From assembly GCA_012522475.1 (NCBI GenBank), contig JAAYKH010000030.1:22063-86062 (forward strand): DNA of 64,000 nucleotides, given 5' to 3'. Positions 45,551-61,981 of this stretch are shown in pieces. The first letter of the stretch is position 1; the number at the start of each line of letters is the position of its first letter. The notes under the pieces were generated by a model. That model ran no database searches. It was not told the origin of the DNA and saw only the letters and a program-made list of their open reading frames with translations. This stretch comes from Chloroflexota bacterium (lineage in GTDB: Bacteria > Chloroflexota > Anaerolineae > Anaerolineales > Anaerolineaceae). A program made the translations under genes and the position numbers.

Positions 45551-46167
45551 TGCTGTTCTTCTTCCTGAATAACGCTGTCAGCTTCTTCGGCGGATACCAT
45601 CATAGACACACCTACAACTGCCATGCCTAGGGTTACAACAGCCAATAAGCCAGTTAATAATGTGGAAAGCTCCAAAGCAGCATAGATCACTTCAAAACCT
45701 GTCAGAAAGGTTAACAATCCGATAATAACTGGAAAAGGCTTTGAATTTAACCCCAATTGCATCAGTGCCATCCCCATCATAATCAATCCACCCTGGATGA
45801 TTAACAAATCAACATCAGGGAATACTCGGCGCTGCAAAGGGGGCGCTAAAATAAAAATCAGCACGATCATCAACAATCCAGATAACCCCTTAAAAAACAG
45901 GTTGGCAACATTTTCCGGCTGCAGCTCTTCCCGGCTGCAACGCAAACTGGTAAATACCATCACTGCCGTTGCCATCCATCCTGAAATTAATTTTACAATG
46001 GCCATATTAATCGGCCAGGAGAGTAAGACCAACACAAAAGCGCCTAAGTATTGAGCGCCTAAAGCTAGGGCAATAATACGCCAATCCCTGAAAATTAAAA
46101 CGATCATGACGGACAGCACAATTGCAATCAATGCCAATTTGGATATCACTTGCATCTTAGTTGACAC
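45547..46167 (-). CDS. Small multi-pass membrane protein (HyfE/NuoJK-like, tentative)
   Basis: About 6-7 TM helices; IIGLLTFLTGFE segment; coupled by overlaps to both neighbours. Confidence 0.45.
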   Translation of the reverse strand: MSTKMQVISKLALIAIVLSVMIVLIFRDWRIIALALGAQYLGAFVLVLLSWPINMAIVKLISGWMATAVMVFTSLRCSREELQPENVANLFFKGLSGLLMIVLIFILAPPLQRRVFPDVDLLIIQGGLIMMGMALMQLGLNSKPFPVIIGLLTFLTGFEVIYAALELSTLLTGLLAVVTLGMAVVGVSMMVSAEEADSVIQEEEQQ

Positions 46168-47779
46168 CCCCGCCCGTTAACAGGCTGATCAATAACGCCA
46201 AGGTTAACACCGTCCATAGGATGCCCCCCTCACCCTCAAAAATCGATGAGAACACCTTTAAAATCTGGCCGAAGAAATAATATAATTTCCAGGCCACCCA
46301 GTAAACCCACTCTAAACGGAATACCGGTTCAATACGTGGCAAGAGCCAGTCCGACACTTTTTTAATCGTGCTGTTGGCAGGTAACTGAAAATAGGGAGGG
46401 GAGATCCCAAAGCGTCGAGCAAGGATGAGCGCGGTTAGAATCAATATGTTACTAAGCAACGCCACCCACCAAACGCCCAAGGTGAACGCCCCTGGCCAGC
46501 CGAAGAAACCCAATATGATCATCGTTTGAAGAATCAGGATCAGTCCAATCGGGAAAACCACGCGCTCCCAGGGCTCTAGCACACCCGCTTCGACACCGGG
46601 TTTGAGTGCATGCTCCAGATAGCCCAAAACCATTAACCCGTGGACAATGATTAATAAAATTGTCCACAGCGTGAAACCGCCCCCAAGCAAACCAGACCAG
46701 CCCGAAGCGACCGGGGTAAAAGGCAGTCCCAAAAAACACAATGCACCAATCAGCAGTAAGAAATTAGTGGGTTGAATACGCGGATAATAAAGAAATAATA
46801 GACTGCCAGGCAAAATTAAAGCCATTCCCCAGGGAATACTGGACTGTGGCACCCCGTTCAACACCGACACCGTCGCAAAGCTCGACCAGGCGATAATCCA
46901 ATATTGCCGACCCTCTATCTCATTCACTGCTACCAACCAGCGAGAAGCTGCATAAATAGCTGCAAGCGTTAACAAGCCCGTTACCAAAGTTTTCCAATAA
47001 CCAGCCTCCGGCAAGAGCGCCTCGCCTGGTAAACGAGCCAGGAGCGTCAGGCTGGCTGCAACCGGTGTCAAACGCAAAACATTCCCGGCGCCTCTGCGTA
47101 AAACAGGCTCTCTGAGAAAGGGCAGGTTGAGGGGAATTACCCCCAGGCGCAATCCCGCTGCCATTAAGAAAATAAAGCCTGCAGGGTACGGCGCTTGTGC
47201 AAAATCGAAATTTCCATTAGCAGCCCATCCCAGCATGGTCCCTAAGAACAACAGCAAAATCGATGCCAAACGCACCCCGTAGGCAATGATGATCCGTTGG
47301 TTAAATTGTGTTGTTTCTTGAAGAGACAATAAAAGGAATAATTCCAGCAGGTCTACCAACACCCAGGCGGTCATCATGGTTAGGCTTGTACCTGATTGAA
47401 CGGCAAGCAACCCCAGCGCGATTATGACCAGGCTTGCAGCCCAAGCACGTGGTCTGCTATCAAAATGAGTGCGCGCGGCATCTGTGAAAACCATGGCCAA
47501 AAACACGGTGATCAATGCCAATGCATACGGCCAAGATTGATAGTCCAGTAACAGAGAAAGCTTTCCGACCTGGTTCAGGCTGGGGTGATCCCAGGAGAAT
47601 AAGGCTACGGTTGTGGGTAAGCGCAGCCTGGAGAAGATAATTATCATCCAGGCAAGAATGCCTGCTGTTACCGTAATCAACCAGCTTGTCCCGTATCGCG
47701 GATGAACCAGGTCCAATATAAAAACAGCCAGGCAGGCAATTAATAAAAATCCAATCGGGGCGAGGATTAACATAGCCAA
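46157..47779 (-). CDS. Highly divergent NuoL/M/N-like antiporter-fold membrane protein
   Basis: LSLLLDYQSW, AWVLVDLLE, AAGLRLGVIPL, LGLPFTP remnants of the antiporter fold. Confidence 0.5.
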   Translation of the reverse strand: MAMLILAPIGFLLIACLAVFILDLVHPRYGTSWLITVTAGILAWMIIIFSRLRLPTTVALFSWDHPSLNQVGKLSLLLDYQSWPYALALITVFLAMVFTDAARTHFDSRPRAWAASLVIIALGLLAVQSGTSLTMMTAWVLVDLLELFLLLSLQETTQFNQRIIIAYGVRLASILLLFLGTMLGWAANGNFDFAQAPYPAGFIFLMAAGLRLGVIPLNLPFLREPVLRRGAGNVLRLTPVAASLTLLARLPGEALLPEAGYWKTLVTGLLTLAAIYAASRWLVAVNEIEGRQYWIIAWSSFATVSVLNGVPQSSIPWGMALILPGSLLFLYYPRIQPTNFLLLIGALCFLGLPFTPVASGWSGLLGGGFTLWTILLIIVHGLMVLGYLEHALKPGVEAGVLEPWERVVFPIGLILILQTMIILGFFGWPGAFTLGVWWVALLSNILILTALILARRFGISPPYFQLPANSTIKKVSDWLLPRIEPVFRLEWVYWVAWKLYYFFGQILKVFSSIFEGEGGILWTVLTLALLISLLTGGGVN

Positions 47780-47789
47780 CTGAAATAAA

Positions 47790-49211
47790 TCATTTTAGGA
47801 TTTCACCCTCGCTTCGCTGTAAATAACGCCCTCCACCGGGTTTGCCATACCAGTTTTCGCCATCGACGATCTTCTGTCCGCGCAGAAATACCATCACTGG
47901 AAAGCCCCTGAGCTGCCATCCTTCATACAGGTTGTGGTCCGTGCGATGGTGCGCAACCTTAACCCCATAGGTAATCTCCTTATTGGGGTCCCACAGAGCG
48001 ACATCTGCATCTGCGCCAGGGAACAAGCTACCTTTCTTTGGATAAAGTCCAAAAATTCTGGCGGGGTTGGTGCAATGCATCGCGACGAATTGGTTGGGGG
48101 TTAACCGCCCGCTGCCCACCCCTTCCGTCCACAAAATCGGCATGCGGTCAGCCACACCGGGCAGGCCATTCGGGACCTTTGTAAAATTATTCTGCCCGAG
48201 TTCTTTACCCGGAATAGCCACGGGTTGCCCTTCGTACAAAATCGGGCGGGTGCCGTCAAAGAAGAAGGGGCAGTGATCCGTGGATATTACCGAGATGATT
48301 GAGCCTGAAACGCCCTCCCACAGGCGGAGGTTATCCCCGCGCTTGCGCATGGGCGGTGAGCAAATCCATTTTGCACCATCATCGCGGCGCAAGTCATTCT
48401 CGGTGAAGAAGAGATACTGCGGGCAAGTTTCCCCCATTATTTTCAAGCCGCGTTGCCGGGCATAATCCAGCTGATCCACCTCGCCAGCCGTGTTCATATG
48501 CACCAGGTAAAGCGGTGCATCACCTGCCTGGGCTGCCAGCGCAGCAACGCGCAGGGAGGCCTCAACTGCACCCCATGCAGGCCTGGTTTTAGCGTGAAAA
48601 TAGGGTTCCGTATTACCCGCGGCCAGGGCTTCATCGATCAAAATGTCGATAATATCGCCGTTCTCCGCGTGCACCATGGTCAAAATACCTGCAGCCCGGG
48701 CCAGGCGCATTACTCGAAAGATCTCACCATCGAATAAACGCAGACGGTTATTGTATGCCGTAAACACCTTCAGGCTGGTGATCCCTAAATCAGGCAGTGA
48801 AAAAATCTCTTTAGCCACTTCCTGATCAAAGCGGGTGATATTCATGTGGAATCCATAATCTACAGAAGCTTTTGGGTCAGCCTTAGCACGCCAGCGGGTG
48901 ATATTTTCCGCCAAGGTGCCTTCATCCTGGGGCACAAAGTCGATCACGGTTGTGGTGCCGCCAAAAGCAGCTGCCTTTCCGCCAGTGTAATGATCATCTG
49001 AAGAGACGGTATCGAACATGGGCAAATCGAGATGCACATGCGGGTCAACGCCACCTGGCAGCACAAACAAATTCGTAGCATCAACCACCTCTGCATTAGG
49101 ATGGGTCAGGTCTTTTCCAATCAGGTTAATCTGCTCGCCTTCAATCACAATATCTGCGATAAAGGTTTCGCTTGCGGTGATCAGGGTGCCGTTTTTAATG
49201 ATTGTTGCCAT
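47790..49211 (-). CDS. hydA: Dihydropyrimidinase / D-hydantoinase
   Basis: PGGVDPHVHLD, AAAFGGTTT, TSLKVFTAY (carbamylated Lys), VHAENG, LVHM, CSPP, STDHCPF, NPARIFGLYPKKG. Confidence 0.93.
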   Translation of the reverse strand: MATIIKNGTLITASETFIADIVIEGEQINLIGKDLTHPNAEVVDATNLFVLPGGVDPHVHLDLPMFDTVSSDDHYTGGKAAAFGGTTTVIDFVPQDEGTLAENITRWRAKADPKASVDYGFHMNITRFDQEVAKEIFSLPDLGITSLKVFTAYNNRLRLFDGEIFRVMRLARAAGILTMVHAENGDIIDILIDEALAAGNTEPYFHAKTRPAWGAVEASLRVAALAAQAGDAPLYLVHMNTAGEVDQLDYARQRGLKIMGETCPQYLFFTENDLRRDDGAKWICSPPMRKRGDNLRLWEGVSGSIISVISTDHCPFFFDGTRPILYEGQPVAIPGKELGQNNFTKVPNGLPGVADRMPILWTEGVGSGRLTPNQFVAMHCTNPARIFGLYPKKGSLFPGADADVALWDPNKEITYGVKVAHHRTDHNLYEGWQLRGFPVMVFLRGQKIVDGENWYGKPGGGRYLQRSEGEILK

Positions 49212-49367
49212 TGCATTCGCTCCTGGTACTCATCATACAAATGGGTATAGCTATGATTTTAGCAGATTATGCCTTAAAAGAAAAAGTCGGTTCTTAAATT
49301 TGTTGAATTCGGTCAATTTAAAAACGAAATAAATTATGCGTTAATTTTTTTCATATCTTCTAATGGA

Positions 49368-49395
49368 TTGACTTAATTGCTGAATGGGGTACTAT
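49368..49395 (+). promoter_or_regulatory. Putative sigma70 promoter of the cold-shock gene
   Basis: TTGACT, 16 bp, TACTAT; implies a ~150-nt 5' leader. Confidence 0.6.
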
Positions 49396-49550
49396 CTTTA
49401 TTGTAGTTAAGTCAATTTTGGTAATCGAAGGTAAACTTCGTGAAAGGTGATAACCGTCCAGACTTGCGGAGACTGGTCGGTTTTTTGTCACCAAACCAAC
49501 AGTGGCTTACGAATTAACTGTTTTAGTAACACAAAAAGGAAATATTTGGA

Positions 49551-49760
49551 ATGTCTGAAAAAGAAATTGGAACCGTAAAATGGTTCAACGACGCAAAAGG
49601 TTATGGTTTTATCGCTCGTCAAGCAGGCGATGATGTGTTTGTACATCACACTGCCATCTTGGGAAGTGGCTTTAAATCTTTGCGTGAAGAACAACAGGTT
49701 GAATTCTCCGTAGAACAGGGCCCCAAAGGCCTGCAAGCTGTTGAAGTGCAACCCCTGTAA
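49551..49760 (+). CDS. cspA: Cold-shock protein
   Basis: [24 protein letters not shown]1/RNP2 motifs. Confidence 0.95.
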
Positions 49761-49790
49761 GCCCCTAGGGCATCATTACTCAATAGAGAT

Positions 49791-49828
49791 TCCGGCCAGT
49801 TTTCCGCAACCTGGCCGGATTTGTTTTT
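49791..49828 (+). terminator. Rho-independent terminator after csp
   Basis: TCCGGCCAG-loop-CTGGCCGGA then TTTGTTTTT. Confidence 0.85.
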
Positions 49829-49836
49829 AAAATCTA

Positions 49837-50391
49837 TCAGCTGGTAATTTTTCCTAAAAGCGCCAGTATTGCCGGGTCCAGCAGTGAGGCGGGTAATTTT
49901 TGTGCCCGGTATTCATGCGCCCTGAGTGCACGCTCTCGCAGGGTGTGCCAGAGCACCTCGCGCTCATCCTGAGATTTAATCACCAGGTCGTTGATCGTCT
50001 GGGCGCCCGGGAACATCTCACCCGTGGTGTAAAAAAAGGTAATCCGCTTCCAATCCGTGGCCGGGATGGGTTTTTCCAGGCGTTGTAGGGGGCCAATTTG
50101 TAATTTAAAGTATTCTTCATCAGCTCGGGGATGGTCGGGTTCATCGCGGATCAAGTCACGCCGCCGGGTGAGTTCATGGCCGAGAAGTTCAGCCACGTAT
50201 GCAATCTGCCAGCGACCAGTATCTCCGAAAGATTTTGTTTGGTAAAAGGCCAGGTAATCAACTGAGATGACCTTGGGCGCATTTTTAAGCGGGATGCGAT
50301 ACCAACCAAACAAACGTGCGATATCAAAATCGCGTTGTGTGGGGAGGATTGCCACCAAAATTAAAGCGGTTTCGGGCAAGAGGCTGCTCAT
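49837..50391 (-). CDS. Conserved hypothetical protein, EVE/PUA-like fold candidate
   Basis: GWYRIP, YLAFYQ, IAYVAE, YFKLQIGPL...PI pattern resembles EVE-type domains. Confidence 0.5.
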   Translation of the reverse strand: MSSLLPETALILVAILPTQRDFDIARLFGWYRIPLKNAPKVISVDYLAFYQTKSFGDTGRWQIAYVAELLGHELTRRRDLIRDEPDHPRADEEYFKLQIGPLQRLEKPIPATDWKRITFFYTTGEMFPGAQTINDLVIKSQDEREVLWHTLRERALRAHEYRAQKLPASLLDPAILALLGKITS

Positions 50392-50761
50392 GGATCTCCC
50401 TGTGTTTTTTATCAGTATGCGAATTTTATCATAAAAGATGTGTGAGAGGCGAATGGCACTTAAGTAATTAATGCCATTTAAGCCATTGAATGATAAATAG
50501 TTTTTACAAAGCTGGATCTATGCTGTTTAACGAATCAAAGATCAGTTTTTTCGCCAAACACAGAATGAATTGCATTTCGACAATTAAAATTAGCGGTGCC
50601 ATCGTTCGGAACAGTGGAAATGGGTAATTATCAGCACAACAGGGTGTGCCTTTTACTTTGACACACCCTGGTACCCAGTTTATCGTTATAAATTAAGTGA
50701 TTAAACAGCCCCTAAGGGGAACCCAAATTACATATTATCCACCGCTAAGCATTCTCCAATG

Positions 50762-52228
50762 CTAGAGCAGCCCGACCAGGTCATTAAATTCCATGATCTT
50801 GGCATCCACCTCGGGGATTTGTTCCTGAAGCTCGGTCCAAAAATCACGGTCATACCACATTTCCTGGATCTCTTCAAAGGTCTTACCCTGCTGCTCAACC
50901 CAGGTGTAGTACTTCAGGTTGTGAACGCATTTCTTACCCAGGTAGGTTAACTCTTCCATGTTGTCTGTGGTGACGCTTTTCAACCAGCGGGCGTCATCGA
51001 TGGCAGCCTGCCTTTCAGAGTATGGGCCCATTTCATCGTGCAGTTCAGCCAGGCGGCTTTCATAAAGCTCCATACTGTCGGTCAACATCGTTACAACAAT
51101 ATCGTTTTCCGTCAGCTCCAGGTATTTCGCCATTTTAATCGCGCTCAGCAGATTTAATATGCTCAATAAACCCAGTAAATCGAGGTTTTCAACCAAATCT
51201 TCCGGCACCCCGACATCGACCAGATAAGCCTTCCCTTCGGGCTCGTTAAACAAGCGCGCCAGGTTGACAATCGCATTATCGTCTTCTGCGACGATGAAAT
51301 CCGTGTTGGCTACGTTATAAATCCAGGGAACGTGCTTGTCGCCAATGCCCTCAACGCGATGCGCACCAAAGCCATTATTCAGCAGCGTTGGGCATTGCAG
51401 GGCTTCAACCGCGGCAATGAAACTGGACGGGTAAAGCTGCTTCATGTAATCGCCGCTGGCGATCGTGCCTGCTGAACCGGTGGCTGAAACCATGCCCCGA
51501 TACACATTGTTTGGTCCAGCAATTTTATTAACCAGCTCTTCCATGGCATGGCCGGTTATGTCGTAATGCCACTGATAATTGCCAAACTCATCAAACTGGT
51601 TGAAGATCATCACATCCTGGCCCGAATTGCGCAATTCCCAGGTTTTATCGAAGATTTCCTTTACATTGGATTCAGATCCAGGGGTCCTGATGACTTCACC
51701 AGCGATATTCTTCAGCCACTCAAAACGCTCCTGGCTCATCTCCTCGGGCAAAATCGCAATCGATTCGCAAGCCAGCAATGCTGAATCGTACGCACCGCCA
51801 CGACAATAATTGCCCGTGGAAGGCCAGACGGCTTTTTGCTGGGTGGGGTCAAATTGTCCCGTTACCAAACGCGGCGCCAAACAAGCGTAGGCGGCGCCAA
51901 CTTTATGAGAACCGGTTGGGAACCACTTGCCCACCAGCGCCACAATTCGGGCAGGCGTACCGGTCAGGCTTTCGGGGAATTCTAAGTAATTCACCCCGCC
52001 AAATAAACCCCCACTGGATACGGGCTCATTATGCCAAGTGATACGAAATAGGTTTCGAGGGTGCAGATCCCACAAACCAATCCCTTTTAGTTCATCTTTG
52101 ATCTTATCTGGCACCTGGCTCGGGTTTCGCATTTGTTCAAAAGTGGGAAAGATGATATTTTGCTGGCGAACCCGTTGAACAGTTTGCTCAAGTCGACCCG
52201 GATACATGGTTAAATCTACTTTTGTCAT
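50762..52228 (-). CDS. Fold-type II PLP-dependent enzyme (cysteine synthase-like, long form)
   Basis: FPTGSHKVGAA (PLP Lys), WPSTGNYCRGG, NQF, SATGSAGT, HRVEGIG. Confidence 0.85.
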   Translation of the reverse strand: MTKVDLTMYPGRLEQTVQRVRQQNIIFPTFEQMRNPSQVPDKIKDELKGIGLWDLHPRNLFRITWHNEPVSSGGLFGGVNYLEFPESLTGTPARIVALVGKWFPTGSHKVGAAYACLAPRLVTGQFDPTQQKAVWPSTGNYCRGGAYDSALLACESIAILPEEMSQERFEWLKNIAGEVIRTPGSESNVKEIFDKTWELRNSGQDVMIFNQFDEFGNYQWHYDITGHAMEELVNKIAGPNNVYRGMVSATGSAGTIASGDYMKQLYPSSFIAAVEALQCPTLLNNGFGAHRVEGIGDKHVPWIYNVANTDFIVAEDDNAIVNLARLFNEPEGKAYLVDVGVPEDLVENLDLLGLLSILNLLSAIKMAKYLELTENDIVVTMLTDSMELYESRLAELHDEMGPYSERQAAIDDARWLKSVTTDNMEELTYLGKKCVHNLKYYTWVEQQGKTFEEIQEMWYDRDFWTELQEQIPEVDAKIMEFNDLVGLL

Positions 52229-52308
52229 TCAGCCTCTCCTTGTTAATTGATCTAATAAGCATGCATCTCATAATTCCAACCGTGATGGATGGAATTAAAA
52301 ACTCACTT

Positions 52309-53259
52309 TTATTCTTTGCTGTCTGGTAGATCTTCAGGCGCTTCTGCTACAATGTACAACGGCCGGTTCTTAGCCTCGTCATAAATTCGCCCGATATATT
52401 CGCCAATGAAGCCCAAGCTGATCAACTGCACCCCGCCCAAAAACAGCACCATGACCACCGTCGTCGCCTGCCCTAGGAGGGCTGTGCCGGTGAGCAAACG
52501 CAGGGTAGCTACCACGGGAATCGCCAGAACGCTCAACCCTGCTGCAATAAAACCGATATAAGTAGCCATCTGAAGGGGAAAGTAAGAGAAGCCAGTAACG
52601 GCATTCAAAGCCAGTTTGAGCATCTTTTTGAAAGGATATTTGGTTTCACCGGCAACCCGCGATTGCCTTTTATAGCTAACCCCTACCTGTCTGAAGCCCA
52701 CCCAAGCTGACATTCCACGCAGGAAGCGGTGCTTTTCGCGCATTTGCTGCATCACCTGCACCACTTTTCGATCCATCAAGCGGAAATCGCCGGTATCTAA
52801 GGGGATTTCCACATCCGTGATGCGGTAGATGAGCCGATAAAACAACGCGGCTGTAGTGCTTTTGAACCAGGTTTCGCCTTCGCGCTCTTCGCGCACGGCA
52901 TATACAACCTCGTAACCTTCGCGCCATTTGGCAATTAAATCAAGAATCACCTCCGGCGGGTCTTGCAAATCGGCGTCGATAATGATCACCGCGTCACCGC
53001 GACAGTAATCGATACCGGCGGAGACCGCAATTTGGTGCCCAAAATTTCGAGCGAAGATCACCGGACGCACCCGCGGGTCGTTCTCGGCCAGTTTCCGCAT
53101 CAGCTCGGTAGAGCCATCTGTGGAACCATCATCGATCAGGATTAACTCCCAGGGTTCGCCAGTACTTTCCATAACACTCTTAACTCGCTGATACAGTTCA
53201 GGAATACTTTCCAGCTCGTTAAAAATGGGTGCAATAACAGTAAAGGTCGGCATGGTCAT
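52309..53259 (-). CDS. GT2 polyprenyl-phosphate glycosyltransferase (GtrB/YkoT-like)
   Basis: [39 protein letters not shown]; two C-terminal TM helices. Confidence 0.93.
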
Positions 53260-54503
53260 CTAAGCTCCTTTATGACTGCTTCAAGGGTTGGTTCAATGAT
53301 AGGCGCGGTAGGGACAGCCCGCATAACAGCGTTAACGTCTTTAAGTCCGCTGCCGGTATTAAGCACCAAGACTGGCTCATCGGGTTCAACAATTTTTTCA
53401 GCAACCGCTTTGACCAGGCCGGCATAAGCAGTTGACGCAGCGGGTTCGGCAAAGATACCAACTCGGCCCAGTTCAGCAATAGCCCCCAGAATAGCTTCAT
53501 CGGGAACAGTCAGGTAGGTACCGCCAGTTTCACACGCTGCTCGCACCGCCCGCACCCCGTCGCGCGGCAGGTCTACAGAGATGCTGTCCGCCAGGGTCGT
53601 CGAGCGGACAGCGCGAATCTCTTCATCGCCGCGCTGAAAAGCATTGGCGATGGCCGCTGAACCTGTAGATTGTACACCAATGATGCGCGGCATTCTTGCC
53701 ATCCAGCCCAGGGCCATCAGGTCTTTAAATCCCTTGTGTATGCCAGAAATGATATTGCCATCTCCTACGGGAATAAAGACAGCCAGGTTTTTACTATCCG
53801 CAGGCAAACGGCACATAACTTGTTCCCAAATTTCAAAGGCGGCGGTTTTTTTACCTTCAGCTGTGAAGGGATTAAACCCGGTATTGCGATTATACCAGCT
53901 CAGGGCTTGCGTTACTTCGATGCTCAAATCAAAAGCCTGGTCGTAATTCCCATCCACCAGCAAAACCCGGGCGCCAAAGCCAATCAACTGTGCAATTTTA
54001 GCGGGTGGGGCAGTTTTCGGGGCAAAAATAACCGCTTTTGTTCCTGACGCGGCTGCCATGCCTGCCAATGCTGAACCGGCATTGCCGGTTGAGGCAGCCA
54101 CGATAACCTCGGCGCCAATTTCAGCAGCGCGGGCCACCACAATGGCACTGGCCCGGTCTTTGAAGGAGGCGGTGGGGTTCGGGCTCTCGTCTTTAATCCA
54201 CAAACGTTGCAATCCCAGTTGTTGTGCCAGGCGAGCGGGCTTATAGACAGGTGTCCATCCAACCCGACGCAAGGGCGTTCCCAGGTTTCCCGGATCGCTC
54301 ACGGGTAATACATTTAAATAACGCCACAGCGATGCCTCTGGCAGATGCATGAAATTCTGAGTATTGTATTGGGCATTAATGGCTTTGTAATCAAGAATAA
54401 CATTCAGGTTCCCGCCATCCTTAGGGCAAGTGTAGGTCACCGCTTCAGGTTCATACTCAGCTCCGCATAAGGAACAGGTGAAATGTGAAAATTTATGTTT
54501 CAT
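53256..54503 (-). CDS. Threonine synthase-like fold-type II PLP enzyme
   Basis: N-terminal Zn ribbon CSLC..CPKD; GWTP; [14 protein letters not shown]; ASTGNAG; PVGDGN; EPAAS; NTGSGLK. Start trimmed to MKHKF. Confidence 0.88.
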
Positions 54504-54583
54504 TGGGTTCCCGGTTGTTATCTTTCGTTTCAATATAAGCTGCATGAGCTGTCACCGTAAAGTGACAACCCATGAATACGCCT

Positions 54584-55531
54584 TTAAGGAACAATCCATG
54601 TGCCAGTCTTGCCTTCAAGGGCATCGCTGATGTGTTTCGGATCAGTGATCAGGGCTTTCTTGCCGCCCTCTTCAAAGTATTTGATGACCGCCTGAATTTT
54701 CGGCAGCATACTACCCGAAGCAAAATGCCCGGCTTCAATATACTGTTTGGCCTCCCCAACGGTCATCCTATCCAGGAAAACCTGGTTTGGCTGATTGTAA
54801 TGTAAGGCAACTTTTTCTACAGCAGTGCTGATGATAAATAAATCTGCTTTGATATGAGACGCGATAATGGCTGCACTGAAGTCTTTGTCGATGACGGCTT
54901 CAATCCCCCTGATATAGCCGGCTTCGTCTTCAATGACGGGGATACCGCCACCGCCCACAGCAACCACAATGGTACCGGCGTGGATGAGTATGTCAATCAC
55001 GTTGGCTTCAACAATATGGGTTGGAAGTGGCGATGGCACCACCCGACGCCATCCACGGCCAGCATCTTCCACAACAGCCCAGCCTTCATTCCCAACCCGC
55101 CGTTTAGCTTCATCTTCATCCATAAAGGAGCCAATGGGCTTGGTGGGGTTCTGAAAGGCCGGGTCATTTCGATTGACAATCGTTTGAGTCACCACCGTTG
55201 CCACATCTTTTACCATGCCGCGTCGTTTAAATTCATTGTAAAGCGCGTTTTCGAACATATACCCAATCGCACCCTGGGTATCTGCGCCGCAGTAATCCAG
55301 TGGGACTTCATGCAGTTCGTGTGCAGCGAGCTCCGAGCGGCGCAAAATGAATCCGACCTGGGGACCATTACCATGTGTTACAACCACATCCCATCCCTTT
55401 TGAATCATGTCTACAATGTGTGTCATCGTGTCATTAGCAGCATTGTACTGATCCTGAACGGATTGATGGCTTTTATCTTTGATTAATGCATTGCCACCCA
55501 CGGCGATAACAGCAATACCTTGTCTTTCCAT
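54584..55531 (-). CDS. arcC: Carbamate kinase (YqeA/ArcC)
   Basis: AVGGNAL, THGNGPQVG, PTKPIG, GWRRVVPSP, GGGGIPV, EAVIDKD, GSMLPK. Confidence 0.95.
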   Translation of the reverse strand: MERQGIAVIAVGGNALIKDKSHQSVQDQYNAANDTMTHIVDMIQKGWDVVVTHGNGPQVGFILRRSELAAHELHEVPLDYCGADTQGAIGYMFENALYNEFKRRGMVKDVATVVTQTIVNRNDPAFQNPTKPIGSFMDEDEAKRRVGNEGWAVVEDAGRGWRRVVPSPLPTHIVEANVIDILIHAGTIVVAVGGGGIPVIEDEAGYIRGIEAVIDKDFSAAIIASHIKADLFIISTAVEKVALHYNQPNQVFLDRMTVGEAKQYIEAGHFASGSMLPKIQAVIKYFEEGGKKALITDPKHISDALEGKTGTWIVP

Positions 55532-55567
55532 ATGATGTTGTGTTCCTGTTCAATAATATTTTTTAAT

Positions 55568-56548
55568 TTAAGCCATCGTCAGAGCCATGACAGCTTTTTG
55601 CGCGTGCAGCCGGTTCTCTGCTTCGTCGAAGACCACAGACTGCGGCCCATACAGAACGCCATCCGTCACCTCGATATCGCGGTCGGCAGGCAAGGGATGC
55701 ATGTAAATGGCATCATCTTTAGCCAGGGCCATTTTCCGCTCATCAGTAATCCAGCTCTCATATTTGTTCGTCACCCGGGTAATTTCATCAGGGTCAGTGA
55801 CTTTCACCAGAGGACCCCAGGATTTAGCGTAAACTATATCTGCGTCTTTAAAACCCTCTTCCATGCTGTCGACAACATCAAAGCCGGTCTTGTACTTGCG
55901 GGCCTGTTCGAGTGCTTGGTCCATAATTTCAGGCATCAATTCAAACTCTGGTGGGTGAGCCAAAACTACATCCAAACCAAAACGGGGCATCTGCAGAATG
56001 AGGGATTGCGGAACAGAAATGGGTTTGGAGTATGAAGACGCGTACGCCCAGGAAACAACGATCTTCTTGCCACGCAAATTGCGGCCTTTCTTTTCCCAGA
56101 TGGTCATCAGGTCTGCTAAACACTGCGGGGGATGGTAGACATCACATTGCATGCTCAACAAGGGAACCCGTGCAGCTTCTGCCACCTGGTTGAGGTACTG
56201 GTTGCCAACGCCCCAATCGCAGTGACGAATCGCAATGCCGTCAAAAAAACGACCGAGGATCTCGCCAATCTCTCTCTCGGTATCGCCATGGGAGATTTGA
56301 GTGGTCTGCGATTCAATAAAAGCAGCATGGCCACCCAGTTGCGCCATACCCGCCTCGAAACTGCAGCGAGTGCGCGTGCTGGAAAAAAAGAACAATAAGC
56401 CTAGAACCTTATCGCGCAGATAAGCATGCGGTTGACCAAGAGCACGCTTCATCTTCAGGTCAAAAGCAACATCTAAAACAGTTTCGACTTCTTCTTTACT
56501 GAAGTCAAGGTCGCTGATTAAATCTCGTCCACGTAAGTTTGTGATCAT
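55568..56548 (-). CDS. ygeW: YgeW-type carbamoyltransferase
   Basis: SSTRTR, HPPQCLAD, WAYASSYSKPISVPQS (YgeW-type loop), YAKSW, MHPLP (not HCLP). Confidence 0.75.
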   Translation of the reverse strand: MITNLRGRDLISDLDFSKEEVETVLDVAFDLKMKRALGQPHAYLRDKVLGLLFFFSSTRTRCSFEAGMAQLGGHAAFIESQTTQISHGDTEREIGEILGRFFDGIAIRHCDWGVGNQYLNQVAEAARVPLLSMQCDVYHPPQCLADLMTIWEKKGRNLRGKKIVVSWAYASSYSKPISVPQSLILQMPRFGLDVVLAHPPEFELMPEIMDQALEQARKYKTGFDVVDSMEEGFKDADIVYAKSWGPLVKVTDPDEITRVTNKYESWITDERKMALAKDDAIYMHPLPADRDIEVTDGVLYGPQSVVFDEAENRLHAQKAVMALTMA

Positions 56549-56609
56549 TTAGGTCTCCTTATTATTTTAGTAAAATTCTCATAATCGTTTTTGAACTAAG
56601 TGTTGATTA

Positions 56610-57342
56610 TCAGGTCTGAAAATTGCCAATTTTTCTGACAACGCATAACTTGAAATATCCGGGAAGAAAATAGCTGTATGAGAAATCGACCGGGATACGC
56701 TCGGTATTAAACAGCACACCAGAAAGGAGCAGCAAAGTATCGCCCCGTCTAACGTCCAGCGCTTTGGCAATTTCTGGGGGCGCGTGGATTGCGCTGATTT
56801 CCGTCCTCGATTCCGACAGGCCCGGATTCAAAACCTGGTTTAACAAGTCCAGTATCGATCCCGTGAACTGCTCTTCGATTATCTCAAGCGCAATGACATG
56901 TTCCGGGAGGATATCGATCAAATACGCCACAGGCACACTTTCAGCCCTGATCACACGGTTAACCTTATAAATAGGTGCGGCCAACCTCAATTTGGAGTTT
57001 TTCGGCGTGAATCTCATCGGCACTCGATCGGGTGATATCTAAAGCGCCCATGGTCACATCAAGACCAATTTTCTTGGCCAGTGTTTCAATGCTTTCTAAT
57101 GCTTCAAGCCCGGTTTCAAAAATATGGGTCGGCTTAACAACAAAGGTTCCTAAACCCTGCCTGCGTCTTAGAAACCCCTGGCTTTCAAAGGTTCGCATCA
57201 CTTCGCGCAAAGTGGCCCGTGATACGCCTAAGTCGGCAGCAAGTTGGGGTTCTGAGGGCAGTTTCGTCCCTTTAGGAGCGTTTTCAATAATTTCCCTCAG
57301 GTCGTTTTGCAATCGGTGATATGTCGAAAGATCTGAATTCAT
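56610..57342 (-). pseudogene. GntR/HutC-type regulator (wHTH + UTRA) split by a one-base frameshift near 56980
   Basis: KLPSEPQLAADLGVSRATLRE HTH in one frame and UTRA (APIYKVNRV...PVAYLID) in another. Deleting one G at 56979-80 restores EVG-APIYK. Confidence 0.85.
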
Positions 57343-57414
57343 ATTTTTGTGCAGCAGCAATTTAAAAACAATGGTCTTTCAGTGGTTTTGCTAAGCCATC
57401 CTTAACTATTTAGA

Positions 57415-58632
57415 TTATTGTGATTTTTCATTAATCAAATGGCTGATCAGGGCATAAAATTCAGTGGCCTTGACCACATCATCCAAATTCACACTATCCA
57501 TATTGGTGTGGGCAGTTTCTTCATCGCCAGGCCCAAAGCCAATCGATGGAATTCCGGCTTTCCCAGCCCAATAGATGCCATTGGTGGAAAAATTCCATTT
57601 GTCTGCGGGAGCATCCTCTAACCCAATCAAGGTGCGAGTTTCAAGGCCCGCTTGAACAAGATAATGATCTTCGTCTAAAGCCCAAGCAGGGAAGTATTTA
57701 TCAACCGGGAACACAAAACCTGTATAGGATGGTTCATCGTAAAAGAGTTCTTCAAGCGCGATCGCGTCGGAAAGTTCTAGGGGTATCAACGCCTGGATTT
57801 GGGCATAAGCTTCTTCTTTTGTTTCGCCGAAGGTTAATCGTCGGTCGATATAGATCACCGCTTCATCGGGAACGGCATTGATGGACGGTGTTTTAACAAC
57901 CATATCCGATACGGTAATTTTTCCATGTCCCAAAAATTCGTCATCCCCTAATTCAGGTTCAAGGTCTCGGATGCCCGCAATGATGGGCAACAATTGGTAA
58001 ATCGCGTTGACCCCCAGGTGGTTCGAAGCGGCATGTGCCGAACGACCTTTAGAGGTGATCTTTAACTCAACCCGGCCTTTATGCCCACGGTAAACCAGCA
58101 TTTTGGTGGGTTCCCCGATGATAGCATAATCTGGTTTCACACCGGGGTCTACTTCCACAAAGGTGTTCGGGGCAATTCCATCACACCATTCTTCCATGTT
58201 GCCAAAGTAATAAGCAGTCCAGCCATCCAATAATCCTAAATCTCGGGCAATGGCCATGCCGTAAACCATACCCGGTGTAGACCCCTTCTCATCACAAGCG
58301 CCGCGGGCAAAAAGAACCCCATCTTCGACTTTTCCGACAAATGGATCCCATCCCCATGATTCAGGGTCGCCAATTCCAACCGTATCGATATGTGAATCAA
58401 ACACGATTACGCGTTCGCCATCCCCAATGCGCCCCAGGATATTGCCCATCTTATCAAAACGGACTTCATCGAATTTTAATCTCCTCATTTCCTCGGCAAT
58501 GCGTTCGCCGACCGGGCCAATCTGAGATTCCATGCTGGGAATAGCAACGATGTCCCTTAGAAACTGGAGGATTTCCGCCCGTTGCTCTTCGACCTTACTT
58601 TGGATTTTACTGACAATTGTCGAGTCAACCAT
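57415..58632 (-). CDS. ygeY: YgeY family M20 hydrolase
   Basis: FDSHIDTVG, GRG-like ARGACDEKG, MEEWCDG, GEPT..VYRGHKGR, FSTNG, GFGPGDE. Confidence 0.88.
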   Translation of the reverse strand: MVDSTIVSKIQSKVEEQRAEILQFLRDIVAIPSMESQIGPVGERIAEEMRRLKFDEVRFDKMGNILGRIGDGERVIVFDSHIDTVGIGDPESWGWDPFVGKVEDGVLFARGACDEKGSTPGMVYGMAIARDLGLLDGWTAYYFGNMEEWCDGIAPNTFVEVDPGVKPDYAIIGEPTKMLVYRGHKGRVELKITSKGRSAHAASNHLGVNAIYQLLPIIAGIRDLEPELGDDEFLGHGKITVSDMVVKTPSINAVPDEAVIYIDRRLTFGETKEEAYAQIQALIPLELSDAIALEELFYDEPSYTGFVFPVDKYFPAWALDEDHYLVQAGLETRTLIGLEDAPADKWNFSTNGIYWAGKAGIPSIGFGPGDEETAHTNMDSVNLDDVVKATEFYALISHLINEKSQ

Positions 58633-58711
58633 TTTAACTATTTCTCCTTTATAGTTTTTTATTTTACAAAACAGGAACCCTATATTAACAAGTCATCATA
58701 CAAATGCTCGA

Positions 58712-60100
58712 TCAATCTCCGGTTAATAAACGTTTCGCAGCCTGGTTGTGTTTCTTCACCAAAGTCGGAACGTTAACGGTCATCAATTCGCCATCTTTGA
58801 CGATTATTTTTCCGCCGACAATGTTGATGTCCACCTTTTGAGGGGCACAGAACAAAGCCGCGGCCACAGGGTCGTGTAGGGCGCCGGCATAATCCAGGCG
58901 GTCGAGGTTAATGGCAAACAAGTCGGCACACTTTCCTACCGCCAGCGAGCCAATATCCTCCCGCCCCAGCACGGCAGCCCCTCCCCGGGTGGCAATTTCA
59001 AGCGCTTGCCGGGCAGTCATCAGCGGCGGCGCATCCTCACCAGACCTTGAAGCGCCCCCCAGCCCGGCGTTTAATCGGGCCAGCAACATTGCCAGGCGTG
59101 CCTCACCTAAAAGGTGAGAACTATCGTTGCTGGATGAACCATCCACCCCCAATCCAACCTTGACGCCCCTGGTCAACATTTCCAAAATAGGCGCAATTCC
59201 CGAAGCCAGGCGCATATTGGAACCGGGGCAGTGGGCCACACCACAACCTGTGTCGGCATATAACTGAATCTCTGCATCGTTCACATGCACACTGTGCGCA
59301 AACCACACATCCTCACCAATCCAGCCGACCTCCTGCATATAAGCCACCGGGCGGTGCCCGAATTTTTCAATACAGAAGTCCTCTTCATCCTGGGTTTCTG
59401 CCAGGTGCGTGTGTAAATGCACCCCGTATTCACGCGCCAGCAAAGCCGATTGTCGCATCAATTCGCCAGTCACACTGAAGGGTGAACAGGGCGCCAGCAC
59501 AACTTGCACCATGGAACCCGGTGAAGGGTCATGGTAGGTTTCAATCAAACGCTGGCTGTCTTTGAGGATATCCTCCTCCGAATCCACCACGCTATCCGGC
59601 GGCAGCCCCCCGGCAGATTCACCCAGGCTCATCGAACCGCGTGAGGCGTGCAAGCGCAAACCGATCTCAGCCGCCCCCATAATTTGGTCATCCAGCCGGG
59701 AGCCATTTGGAAACAGGTAAAGGTGGTCAGACGCCGTCGTACAGCCTGAAAACGCCAGTTCGGCCAGTGCCGTTTGGGTTGAGATGAAAATATCTTCCGG
59801 CCCCATCCGGGCCCAGATCGGGTACAAAGTTACCAGCCAGTTGAACAGGTTGGCATTTTGAGCCTTGGGCACAGCCCGGGTCAACGTTTGATAGAAATGG
59901 TGATGCGTGTTAACAAAGCCCGGAAAAACAATATGCCCGCAGAGATCGAGATCTTCGTCGACCTCTGCGGGCATATCCGTTAATGCGCCAATCGCTTGAA
60001 TGAAACCATCCTTTATGTAAAGGTTGGTGTTTTGCAGCTCCTGGCGTTGGTCATCCATCGTGACCAAGATTTCAATATTTTTTATTCTTAAGGTTGACAT
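58712..60100 (-). CDS. 8-oxoguanine deaminase / SsnA-AtzB family amidohydrolase
   Basis: PGFVNTHHHFYQTLTR, SDHLY, RGSMS, PCSPFSV, HTHLAET, WFAHSVH, HCPGSNMRLASG, GVDGSSSND. Confidence 0.88.
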   Translation of the reverse strand: MSTLRIKNIEILVTMDDQRQELQNTNLYIKDGFIQAIGALTDMPAEVDEDLDLCGHIVFPGFVNTHHHFYQTLTRAVPKAQNANLFNWLVTLYPIWARMGPEDIFISTQTALAELAFSGCTTASDHLYLFPNGSRLDDQIMGAAEIGLRLHASRGSMSLGESAGGLPPDSVVDSEEDILKDSQRLIETYHDPSPGSMVQVVLAPCSPFSVTGELMRQSALLAREYGVHLHTHLAETQDEEDFCIEKFGHRPVAYMQEVGWIGEDVWFAHSVHVNDAEIQLYADTGCGVAHCPGSNMRLASGIAPILEMLTRGVKVGLGVDGSSSNDSSHLLGEARLAMLLARLNAGLGGASRSGEDAPPLMTARQALEIATRGGAAVLGREDIGSLAVGKCADLFAINLDRLDYAGALHDPVAAALFCAPQKVDINIVGGKIIVKDGELMTVNVPTLVKKHNQAAKRLLTGD

Positions 60101-60235
60101 AAGCATCCATCTTTTTTAGTGAGTTAGCTAGATATTTAGTCAACCTAATTTTATCGAAAGAACGTGTTATCGTCAATTGTCTGACAAATTTAAAAATGCA
60201 CAACCCTTGATTCTTTAAGGGTGCAACGCCCCCGG

Positions 60236-61981
60236 TTACGAGCCGCAATATATATTTTGTTTAATTGTCTCAATGGCCTCATCAACCGACATAACCCAGC
60301 GCTCATCTTGTGTACGCCGCTTGAATTCAAAGCCCCCTCCCGTCAGCGAACGATCAGAGATGGTCACGCGCAACGGAATGCCAATCAGATCCGCATCATT
60401 GAACTTGACACCGGCGCGTTCATTCCGATCATCATACAACGGTTCCAATCCAGATTTAATTAATGCTTGGTAGAAGGTCTCAGCTTCTTTTTCTACAGAG
60501 CCGTCCTTGCTCCCCAATACCACCAGGTGTACCGGGTACGGCGTTATCGAGTCAGGCCAGATCAAACCCTGCGAATCGTGGTGTTCTTCGGCCACACAGG
60601 CCATCAATCTGCCCACATCGATCCCATAAGACCCCATGAGGATTGAGTGAGGTTGCCCGGCCTCATCCAGGTATGAGGCCCCCACGGCATCAGTATAACA
60701 GCTACCCAATTTGAAAATATTGCCCACTGTAACACCACATTGGGCCTTCAGCCGCCCCCCGCAATGCGGGCAGTGCGCGCCGTCCTCAGCCATAACAATA
60801 TCCGCGACAATGTCCGCCTGGTAATCCCGTCCCAGGTTGGTATTGCATAAGTGGTAACCTGGCTCATTCGCCCCGGCTACCAGGTTGGGCGCCCTTAAAA
60901 GCAAGTCATCAGCTACAACCCAGACTTTTTCACGCTCAATGCCAACCGGTGAGCCATATCCCGGACTGGCGCCAATGGCTGCAATTTCAACATCTGTCGC
61001 CGGCACCAGGTTTATAACGTTACCCTTTCCAGCTGCACTTAACGCGTTGCTCAATTTAGTTTCATTTAAGGTCATATCGCCCCGTAAGACGGCAAACACC
61101 ATACGGGGTGAGGGGTCTTCAGCCACTTCTGCCATTAAAAAGATCGCTTTCGCAGTTTTCGCCGGAGAAATACCCAGGTAAGCCGCCAACTCAGCAATCG
61201 TAGACGCCCCGGGCGTGGCAACTTTTTCCAGTGGTTGCAGCTCCTCAACCTCCGGATCAGGTTTTCTAAAAACAGCCACCTGGCGATTGGCTGCGTAATC
61301 ACATTGTGTGCAAAACAACAACGTCTCTTCGCCCCCAGGCGTCAGGTAGATATATTCGTGTGCCTCCAGCCCTCCCATCCTGCCCGCATCCGCCCCCACC
61401 GCCCTGACAGGTAAACCACAGCGATTAAAGATACGGAAGTAAGCTTCGTAATGTGCTTGGTATTGGCGATCCAACCCCTCTCGGTCGCGGTCCAGGCTGT
61501 AGCTGTCCAGCGTGGTAAATTCCCGAGCTCGAATCAACCCCGCCCGCGGTCGGGAATCATCCCTGAATTTGTCCTGAATGTGATAGAGCAGCTGGGGCAG
61601 CTGCCGGTATGATTGAATCTCTCGCCGTGTCAGGTGAGCCACCGCAGCCTCGAAAGCTGCAGCCAAAACCATGTCATGGTCGCTGCGATCTTTAAACCGA
61701 ACTGTCACATCATCCATTTGGCTCAGGCGGCTACCCTGCTGCCCGATATCCGCCGGCTGTACCAACGGCATTTTGAGTTCCTGGCCCCCAATCGCCGCCA
61801 TTTCCTCGCGCATGATGTTTTCAATGCGGGTCAACACCCGCTGAGCCCGAGGTAAATGGGCATAGATACCCGGCGCCAACGGGCGAATAAAACCTGCTCT
61901 GAGCAATAATTGATGGCTGGCGATCTCCACTTCGGAAGGCGCATCGCGCAGGGTTGTCCCGAACAGCTTCGACATGCGCAT
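60236..61981 (-). CDS. Prolyl-tRNA synthetase paralog (type IIa with INS editing domain), aminoacylation motifs degenerate
   Basis: Overall ProS architecture, but THEE->AFEA, WxESGRW->GQQGSRL, MKD->TLD, GxEVG->GVTVG, GIGxxR->GIDVGR. Confidence 0.85.
   Translation of the reverse strand: MRMSKLFGTTLRDAPSEVEIASHQLLLRAGFIRPLAPGIYAHLPRAQRVLTRIENIMREEMAAIGGQELKMPLVQPADIGQQGSRLSQMDDVTVRFKDRSDHDMVLAAAFEAAVAHLTRREIQSYRQLPQLLYHIQDKFRDDSRPRAGLIRAREFTTLDSYSLDRDREGLDRQYQAHYEAYFRIFNRCGLPVRAVGADAGRMGGLEAHEYIYLTPGGEETLLFCTQCDYAANRQVAVFRKPDPEVEELQPLEKVATPGASTIAELAAYLGISPAKTAKAIFLMAEVAEDPSPRMVFAVLRGDMTLNETKLSNALSAAGKGNVINLVPATDVEIAAIGASPGYGSPVGIEREKVWVVADDLLLRAPNLVAGANEPGYHLCNTNLGRDYQADIVADIVMAEDGAHCPHCGGRLKAQCGVTVGNIFKLGSCYTDAVGASYLDEAGQPHSILMGSYGIDVGRLMACVAEEHHDSQGLIWPDSITPYPVHLVVLGSKDGSVEKEAETFYQALIKSGLEPLYDDRNERAGVKFNDADLIGIPLRVTISDRSLTGGGFEFKRRTQDERWVMSVDEAIETIKQNIYCGS

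Follow-up and report, generated by a model that had tools for sequence, protein, structure and literature searches.

In a window of 64,000 nucleotides (G000, contig C85, positions 22063-86062; assembly of 2.26 Mb, 98.6% complete) we found a gene cluster, at 47790-60106 of the window, that probably encodes the ATP-yielding "de-ureidation", or lower, half of a reductive 2,8-dioxopurine fermentation of urate and purines. We put the probability of this explanation, in which Brevefilum-like Anaerolineae run the pathway with lineage-specific substitute enzymes, at roughly 70%. It rests on family memberships, the genome inventory, synteny and co-occurrence, and all of its steps are deduced from homology and context. 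The nearest loci bearing the carbamoyltransferase gene of the cluster, called CT here, belong to Brevefilum and other metagenome-assembled genomes of the Anaerolineaceae. A preceding sequence-only reading of this DNA had proposed a rearranged anaerobic urate pathway. The core of that proposal is borne out by the inventory, by co-occurrence in the class and by linkage to ssnA and ygfK in relatives, while four of its details had to be revised.

The reductive urate pathway was solved in 2025 in gut bacteria (bioRxiv 10.1101/2025.04.24.650524; PMC12507026; commentary PMC12990295). The set of Escherichia coli and Clostridium sporogenes comprises XdhD-YgfM or XdhAC, YgfK, SsnA, HyuA, YgeW, YqeA, YgeY and YgeX. 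XdhD-YgfM (or XdhAC) forms 2,8-dioxopurine, which is then reduced by YgfK; HyuA yields 2,3-diureidopropionate, from which YgeW, coupled to the kinase YqeA, takes off one ureido group; YgeY takes off the other, and YgeX gives pyruvate (bioRxiv 10.1101/2025.04.24.650524; PMC12507026; PMC12990295). Using a sequence-similarity network of SsnA, Li et al. 2025 found that this protein is common in Chloroflexota and that an F420 'luciferase-family' reductase replaces YgfK/UacX there; their HyuA marker was TIGR02033 (= IPR011778), and YgeW and YgeX were scored at Pfam level only (PF00185, PF00291) (PMC12507026). The outline of the pathway is already known from that study. What our data add is that the transferase and the pyridoxal phosphate (PLP) enzymes appear to be lineage-specific substitutes, and that YgeY and a second transferase, CT2, seem to alternate.

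In the proposed route, purine bases would be converted to urate by the 8-oxoguanine-deaminase-family enzyme of the window and by selenium-dependent xanthine dehydrogenases (Xdh) encoded on contig C86. Urate would then be reduced to 2,8-dioxopurine by an XdhD-like Mo/Fe-S enzyme and its YgfM-like FAD subunit (C86), and a luciferase-like reductase using F420H2, encoded beside NpdG and CofC/D/E, would take the place of YgfK in dearomatisation. SsnA (C86) would open the six-membered ring and the hydantoinase of the window the hydantoin ring, giving 2,3-diureidopropionate. CT, acting on 2,3-diureidopropionate or on the mono-ureido product, would take off one ureido group by phosphorolysis; the resulting carbamoyl phosphate would be used by carbamate kinase to form ATP, and the other ureido group would be hydrolysed by YgeY. 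Finally, DpaL (contig C29), the CysK-like and ThrC-like PLP enzymes of the cluster, or both would convert 2,3-diaminopropionate to pyruvate, which could enter pyruvate:ferredoxin oxidoreductase (PFOR), whose gene was confirmed nearby, as had been noted before (Table 1).

All genes of the cluster lie on the minus strand except csp. The genes listed in the sequence-only reading were all found at their positions. That list is complemented here by a family 2 glycosyltransferase (GT2) and a conserved 184-aa open reading frame (ORF), neither of which had been included, and corrected with respect to csp, which is encoded on the plus strand.

Table 1. Features of the cluster and related features of the window, with the matches on which the names are based (bit score, followed by the model cut-off where one is given).
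Feature	Position	Strand	Basis
Amidohydrolase, 8-oxoguanine deaminase family	58712-60106	-	NF006055, 671 bits > 532
YgeY, M20 family	57415-58632	-	TIGR03526, 475.6 > 321.5; NF009555, 434 > 321
GntR/HutC-type regulator, helix-turn-helix (HTH) + UTRA	56610-57360	-	PF00392 on 56965-57360; PF07702 on 56610-57023
Carbamoyltransferase CT, 326 aa, OTCace fold	55568-56548	-	PF02729 + PF00185
Carbamate kinase	54584-55531	-	TIGR00746, 386 > 358.25; NF009007, 395 > 266
ThrC-like fold-type II PLP enzyme, N-terminal zinc ribbon	53256-54545	-	TIGR00260, 174 > 167; NF006050, 263 < 303
GT2, polyprenyl-phosphate-type glycosyltransferase	52309-53259	-	PF00535, 122 bits; PgfS/ArnC-like
PLP2, CysK/CBS-like fold-type II PLP enzyme, 488 aa	50762-52228	-	PF00291, weak match
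Conserved 184-aa ORF	49837-50391	-	no Pfam/NCBIfam family
csp, cold-shock protein	49551-49760	+	PF00313, 92.7 bits
D-hydantoinase/dihydropyrimidinase, HyuA-type	47790-49211	-	TIGR02033, 494.3 > 393.25
PFOR	24531-28124		
Candidate cluster promoter, sigma-70-like, TTGACG-17-TAAAAT	60148-60176	-	best hexamer pair upstream of the first gene

Judged by its motifs and its place in the tree, CT is a short-form YgeW-like transferase outside the curated YgeW equivalog, and it probably works like YgeW. The enzyme scored below every NCBIfam cut-off tested, including those of models for ornithine carbamoyltransferase (OTC; TIGR00658, 234.6 < 280.85, and 244 against a cut-off of 306), N-acetylornithine carbamoyltransferase (AOTC; 233 against 288) and putrescine carbamoyltransferase (PTC; 192 against 500), and its top overall PDB score was to the OTC of Pyrococcus furiosus. 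The failed cut-offs and the P. furiosus score had first suggested that CT is unrelated to YgeW, a view that was revised after the residue-level alignment to 3Q98 and 2YFK and the tree. The ornithine-site motifs DxxxSMG and HCLP are absent from CT in the alignment, and YAKSWGPL and HPLP stand in their stead. When CT was aligned to E. coli YgeW (3Q98) and its Enterococcus faecalis homologue (2YFK), the substrate-site blocks which distinguish YgeW from OTC proved to be common to all: CT has WAYASSYSKPISVPQ where YgeW has WAYSPSYGKPLSVPQ, DADIVYAKSWGP for DADIVYPKSWAP, QISHGDTERE for QIAHGETVRE and GVGNQYL for GAGNAYM. Two YgeW-type second-substrate motifs, WAYxxSYxKPxSVPQ (in CT WAYASSYSKPISVPQ) and YPKSWAP (in CT YAKSWGP), are invariant across 15 CT orthologues. 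CT also shares with 3Q98 and 2YFK the carbamoyl-phosphate motifs STRTR and HPxQ, as well as the patterns YxKSWxP, QIxHGxTxRE and GxGNxY. In contrast to YgeW, which has about 396 aa, CT is 70 residues shorter and lacks the insertions that follow the GNAY motif and KSWAP, which appear as alignment gaps; it has HPLP for HCLP, and its C-terminal helix is OTC-like (AENRLHAQKA).

In a maximum-likelihood tree of 96 sequences (50%-identity representatives and references), CT falls into a clade of seven rows (support 100/98). Together with canonical YgeW it lies inside one clade of 19 rows (99/96), and a single branch has all 12 rows with the YgeW motif on one side. The name ygeW given to this gene in the sequence-only reading therefore has to be replaced, since the protein fails the cut-offs of the YgeW equivalog models and is a short YgeW-like paralogue; a genome-wide search detected no YgeW equivalog. 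A second paralogue, about 52% identical to the CT of the window, is found directly upstream of a hydantoinase in G041:C125, G083:C9 and G120:C121, and G083 and G120 hold the main CT orthologue as well.

The genes for the upper part of the route were sought genome-wide, as the sequence-only reading had advised for xdh, ygfK and ssnA. Its expectation that xdh lies outside the window was correct, and both xdh and ssnA were located on C86; ygfK, by contrast, was not found anywhere in the genome. The best match to the YgfK model is a 768-aa GltD/Nfn-like protein on contig C7 (280 < 835), which was considered as a possible truncated YgfK but rejected on its sequence, a fusion of FNR-like and GltD-like parts. 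SsnA (C86:69118-70473; TIGR03314, 461.5 > 455.5) ends a long run of co-oriented genes (C86:53393-70473). Its other members are a YqeC-MocA fusion, YqeB, an Xdh Mo subunit, an FAD + 2Fe-2S subunit, XdhC, an XdhD-like Fe-S + Mo fusion of 1004 aa followed by an FAD subunit of 257 aa, a thioesterase, a luciferase-like (LLM) F420-dependent oxidoreductase, CofC, CofD, CofE and NpdG. YqeB serves the selenium-dependent maturation of the Mo cofactor. The names of XdhC, the thioesterase, CofC, CofE and the FAD subunit of 257 aa come from inspection of the sequences. For the rest, NCBIfam confirmed the names, except that the Mo subunits of the two Xdh enzymes and the FAD + 2Fe-2S subunit matched Xdh models below the cut-offs only. 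The 257-aa ORF matched no NCBIfam family and was judged by eye to be a FAD subunit like YgfM. Altogether the genome holds four genes with an Xdh Mo domain, two of them in this run. The presence of F420 biosynthesis genes inside a purine-catabolic gene run is unusual. The likely substitute for YgfK is the luciferase-like F420-dependent reductase encoded beside ssnA, as proposed by Li et al. 2025 (PMC12507026).

DpaL/YgeX is encoded on C29 (NF006058, 490 > 276). The only match to the DHO_dh family (PF01180) in the genome is weak (45.9 bits) and lies in the window next to PFOR (23415-24419, minus strand); this gene is presumably the PyrD of the organism. In a group of Brevefilum relatives (loci L026-L031 and L092), proteins read by eye as PyrK-like 2Fe-2S and PyrD/DHO_dh-like are encoded between proS and the 8-oxoguanine deaminase, and this pair resembles the UacX-type reductase of Clostridioides difficile. 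The pair is absent from the window, and tblastn found no homologue of it anywhere in the genome.

The arrangement of the cluster is conserved. We compared 80 related loci; with two exceptions they are labelled Chloroflexota/Anaerolineae, and their CT is 78-89% identical. Their common order is (FolD) - 8-oxoguanine deaminase - adenine deaminase - GntR - CT2 - CT - carbamate kinase, followed by (BMP-type ABC importer) - ThrC-like - GT2 - PLP2 - (184-aa ORF - hydantoinase). CT2 is an ATCase-like second transferase, and the BMP-type importer, which occurs together with adenine deaminase in related loci, is of a kind usually annotated for nucleosides. CT adjoins carbamate kinase in 74 of the 80 loci; this adjacency and the preserved gene order argue that the arrangement is not due to chance. 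The window carries a trimmed form, lacking CT2, adenine deaminase and the importer and having YgeY instead of CT2. It is thus the form of the cluster with a single transferase and YgeY.

For the survey of the class, one evenly drawn sample of 151 Anaerolineae genomes was used in every search. CT relatives (E <= 1e-60) and SsnA were each detected in 112 genomes, the hydantoinase in 109, and PLP2 and the ThrC-like enzyme in 116 each. CT orthologues with at least 65% identity were present in 63, YgfK in 29, CT2 in 26, DpaL in 2 and the YgeW equivalog in 0 of the 151. Each of the markers CT, SsnA, PLP2 and hydantoinase, taken singly, occurs in 72-77% of the genomes; all four are present in 85 (56%) and none of them in 24. 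The ThrC-like enzyme and SsnA were found together in 107 genomes, singly in 9 and 5, and neither was found in 30; for PLP2 and SsnA the corresponding numbers are 105, 11, 7 and 28. Hydantoinase and SsnA occur together in 101 genomes. In the 63 genomes that carry a CT orthologue, it is accompanied by a high-scoring YgeY alone in 36, by CT2 alone in 17, by both in 8 and by neither in 2. Hence, YgeY and/or CT2 accompany CT in 61 of 63 genomes, which is the pattern predicted by a substrate with two ureido groups.

Moreover, the lower and upper parts are physically linked in relatives. A co-oriented run in genome G028, YgeY-CT-carbamate kinase-ThrC-GT2-PLP2-184-aa ORF-SsnA-NpdG-CofE-CofD-CofC-LLM, fuses what C85 and C86 hold apart in the present genome. 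G120 has the order SsnA-YgfK-...-PLP2-ThrC-CT-CT2, the genes (SsnA-)YgfK-PLP2-ThrC are in direct contact in G041, G047 and G089, and PLP2 adjoins ygfK or ssnA in many genomes. We further observed that the genomes with YgfK mostly have more distant CT relatives (46-52% identical), which in some of them (G022, G094, G005, G004, G044, G150) adjoin a 39%-identical partner, and that a CT orthologue and YgfK occur together in only 5 of the 151 genomes. This distribution points to two versions of the pathway in the Anaerolineae.

For the two PLP enzymes, too, the earlier reading needs revision, as they are not homologues of YgeX. Against the DpaL/YgeX models (TIGR03528, TIGR01747) the ThrC-like enzyme reached 32 bits and PLP2 gave no match, so that neither qualifies as DpaL; the true DpaL is the one on C29. 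The pair nevertheless tracks the pathway, and its linkage to ssnA and ygfK in relatives indicates that both enzymes belong to it. In most of the class they probably replace DpaL, as judged from distribution and gene context. PLP2 was modelled by AlphaFold2 with a mean confidence (pLDDT) of 79.5; among PDB folds it comes closest to CysK, beta-cyanoalanine synthase and CBS (TM-score about 0.75), and there is a weak match to the SbnA family. The substrates of CysK, beta-cyanoalanine synthase and CBS are alpha-amino acids with a leaving group in beta position. A fold of this kind fits diaminopropionate or albizziin as substrate, and PLP2 is the best candidate in the class for the conversion of either compound to pyruvate.

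The closest solved structures to the ThrC-like enzyme are threonine synthases. A search of the genome for the homoserine kinase gene thrB (TIGR00191) detected none. That the ThrC-like protein is a plain housekeeping threonine synthase is made less credible by about 35 Anaerolineae genomes without the family, by its tracking of SsnA and by the missing thrB. Possibly the organism is auxotrophic for threonine, or the enzyme has a dual role. GT2 has hydrophobic, transmembrane-like C-terminal segments and is located between the ThrC-like gene and PLP2 in about 41 of the 80 loci, being absent from that position in others. For the 184-aa ORF, no Pfam or NCBIfam match was obtained even at E = 0.01. 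Its AlphaFold2 model (pLDDT 80) gave weak Foldseek matches to ASCH and YTH domains (E 5e-4, TM-score 0.43-0.53), hinting at a PUA-like (ASCH/YTH) fold, and the protein could possibly bind a base or nucleoside. The ORF is located between PLP2 and ssnA in G028, G038 and G080.

The remaining genes of the cluster are assigned more easily. The amidohydrolase is indeed an 8-oxoguanine-deaminase-like protein, as had been read from the sequence; it is no stand-in for SsnA, scoring far below the SsnA model (TIGR03314, 127.8 < 455.5). It would channel 8-oxoguanine or bases of the guanine type towards urate, and it is encoded upstream of the regulator in 45 of the 80 related loci. YgeY directly adjoins the CT orthologue in many Anaerolineae genomes and would hydrolyse the second (alpha-N) ureido group to leave 2,3-diaminopropionate. 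Carbamate kinase converts carbamoyl phosphate and ADP to ATP, NH3 and CO2. The hydantoinase, for which D-hydantoinases and dihydropyrimidinases are the closest solved structures, is the sole gene of its kind in the genome and would open ureidomethyl-hydantoin to 2,3-diureidopropionate. Its stop codon lies 10 nt before a 540-aa ORF, which is followed by overlapping genes for membrane proteins of 206 and 471 aa (44135-47779, minus strand), the latter NuoN/MrpD-like. The same membrane trio is also found 3' of the hydantoinase in loci L040 and L048, and a 538-aa homologue is there in L028. The GntR regulator is broken by a frameshift near 56975-56995 that puts its HTH and UTRA halves into separate frames; in tblastn, the 245-aa orthologue of L023, which is intact, places the frame switch at residues 114-121. 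The regulator is a single intact ORF in about 60 related loci, and the frameshift may reflect a genuine mutation or a fault of the assembly.

Several observations weigh against the urate explanation. CT does not reach the YgeW equivalog models (TIGR03316, 194.8 < 500; NF005538, 203.9 < 453), and its clade joins the canonical YgeW clade only at 82/40 in the tree. The XdhD-like 1004-aa fusion has TIGR03313 as its best model, at 696 < 1102. The genome carries DpaL too, so the two PLP enzymes look redundant here, and the ThrC-like gene is the only match to a threonine-synthase model in the genome, for which it could still have a housekeeping role. No role for GT2, the ThrC-like enzyme or the 184-aa protein is explained by the proposed route, and the hydantoinase, split off from the main run by csp, appears instead to be co-transcribed with the three membrane-protein genes at 44135-47779. 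Finally, the surveyed genomes are related and not independent, so that the co-occurrence counts describe a pattern rather than a statistical test and overstate the support.

Some of these points lead to a rather unlikely alternative, in which only part of the stretch belongs to one pathway and the ThrC-like enzyme, GT2, PLP2 and the 184-aa ORF are genes of amino-acid biosynthesis or the envelope, kept beside CT, carbamate kinase and YgeY by inherited order. The ThrC-like protein passes the thrC model and is alone of its kind, GT2 resembles a membrane-bound polyprenyl-phosphate sugar transferase with no obvious purine-catabolic role, and in most relatives an ABC transporter is inserted between these genes and carbamate kinase. 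However, both PLP enzymes track SsnA, and searches failed to find them in about 35 genomes of the class, including complete ones; their genes directly adjoin ygfK or ssnA in G041, G047, G089, G053 and G028; and thrB was not detected in this genome. For GT2, which is missing from many of the ssnA- and ygfK-linked arrangements, this alternative is still a fair one. It is also unlikely that the module degrades pyrimidines, or free hydantoins and N-carbamoyl amino acids, with a dihydropyrimidinase acting on dihydrouracil, the M20 enzyme as beta-ureidopropionase or CT acting on N-carbamoyl-beta-alanine, and ATP formed by carbamate kinase. The hydantoinase is of the dihydropyrimidinase family, with dihydropyrimidinases and D-hydantoinases as its nearest solved relatives, and M20 enzymes include beta-alanine synthases. 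SsnA, too, is related to PydB according to Li et al. (PMC12507026). Yet the one weak DHO_dh gene and the partial, GltD-like match to the YgfK model on C7 leave no obvious dihydropyrimidine dehydrogenase of the PydA/PreAT type, the linked genes are purine-specific (SsnA, YgfK, the selenium-type Xdh operon, adenine deaminase and 8-oxoguanine deaminase), and CT carries the substrate motifs of YgeW.

An anabolic module seems very unlikely. Here CT would use carbamoyl phosphate from carbamate kinase to make a ureido compound, to be processed by the PLP enzymes and GT2 for the envelope or a secondary metabolite. Carbamate-kinase-like enzymes run in the synthetic direction in some archaea, and a membrane GT2 together with two PLP enzymes of beta-replacement type, PLP2 with its weak SbnA match among them, would suit such a function; against it stand the linkage and co-distribution with catabolic genes (Xdh, SsnA, YgfK, deaminases, importers), the GntR/UTRA regulator, of a type that usually governs catabolic operons, and the dispensability of GT2 in many versions of the cluster. 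Hardly credible is a pathway for arginine/citrulline (arginine deiminase) or agmatine/putrescine, with CT as catabolic OTC or PTC working with carbamate kinase. Public annotations do name CT orthologues ornithine or N-acetylornithine carbamoyltransferase, and the top PDB score is to P. furiosus OTC; but DxxxSMG and HCLP are absent, the OTC, AOTC and PTC models are all missed, a classical OTC with DxWxSMG and HCLP is encoded on C41, and no arginine deiminase gene (arcA) was found in the genome. The inventory also includes an ATCase on C35. The identity of about 80% across the class had raised the idea that CT is the housekeeping arginine enzyme, which was rejected because orthologues with at least 65% identity occur in just 63 of the 151 genomes, because of the OTC on C41 and because the ornithine motifs are lacking. 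The sequence-only reading had named an arginine-pathway function of the carbamoyltransferase as the finding that would overturn it, and this function can be set aside.

The urate explanation could also take a more far-reaching form, which we offer tentatively and consider doubtful. The end of the pathway in Anaerolineae may be chemically unlike that of E. coli, with the ThrC-like and CysK-like enzymes, the PUA-like protein and, in many lineages, GT2 performing a beta-elimination or beta-replacement on a C3 ureido/amino acid (e.g. albizziin) instead of DpaL. The short YgeW-like transferase would then have a distinct substrate or regiospecificity, and lineages with CT2 would phosphorolyse both ureido groups, gaining two ATP per urate.

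Compared with the pathway of E. coli and C. sporogenes, the present genome has SsnA, a HyuA-type hydantoinase, YgeY, carbamate kinase and DpaL above the family cut-offs. The maturation set of a selenium-type Xdh (YqeB, YqeC-MocA) is there as well, and so is an XdhD-like protein that joins Fe-S and Mo parts and is paired with a small FAD subunit. The logic, as read from the genes alone, would be the same: one ureido group is removed by phosphorolysis, yielding ATP, and the other by hydrolysis. In contrast, a 326-aa YgeW-like enzyme replaces YgeW, YgfK was not found in the genome, where genes for an F420-dependent LLM reductase lie beside ssnA, and at least three contigs share the genes of the pathway. 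The cluster additionally embeds two PLP enzymes, GT2 and the PUA-like protein, and the regulator is a frameshifted GntR/UTRA protein. The Chloroflexota variant of Li et al. 2025 comes from the same lineage and has the same surroundings of ssnA with LLM, NpdG and Cof genes, but those authors did not report CT and the PLP enzymes as non-orthologous substitutes, nor CT2, GT2 or the PUA-like protein. With the arginine deiminase pathway the cluster shares substrate-level ATP formation from a ureido group via carbamoyl phosphate; it differs in gene context, in the lack of ornithine-binding residues and in that no arginine deiminase was found.

Within the cluster, carbamate kinase starts 36 nt past the CT stop codon, the GT2 and ThrC-like genes overlap by 4 nt, and csp, on the opposite strand, splits the hydantoinase from the main gene run. 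An 87-aa ORF at 49488-49751 was rejected as a gene, being the shadow of csp on the other strand. Upstream, proS (60236-61981) abuts the 8-oxoguanine deaminase gene. Promoter and terminator scans of the region gave counts no higher than in shuffled sequence, and the hexamer pair at 60148-60176 is a weak candidate for the cluster promoter; a search for operators as inverted repeats yielded nothing convincing. SelB (TIGR00475, 357 > 242) is encoded 5 kb from the cluster (40900-42786, minus strand), which fits a selenium-using organism.

Overall, the cluster suggests that a rebuilt urate pathway is widespread in the Anaerolineae, since all four markers are present in 85 of the 151 genomes. The variant is a natural experiment on which ureido group a YgeW-type enzyme attacks and on whether DpaL is needed, and it supplies compact alternative enzymes, namely a predicted 326-aa YgeW-like transferase and a predicted F420-linked reductase. 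Anaerolineae are fermenters that abound in digesters, in sediments and in the subsurface. If the proposed pathway is true, purines from dead biomass would be an ATP-yielding substrate for these organisms.

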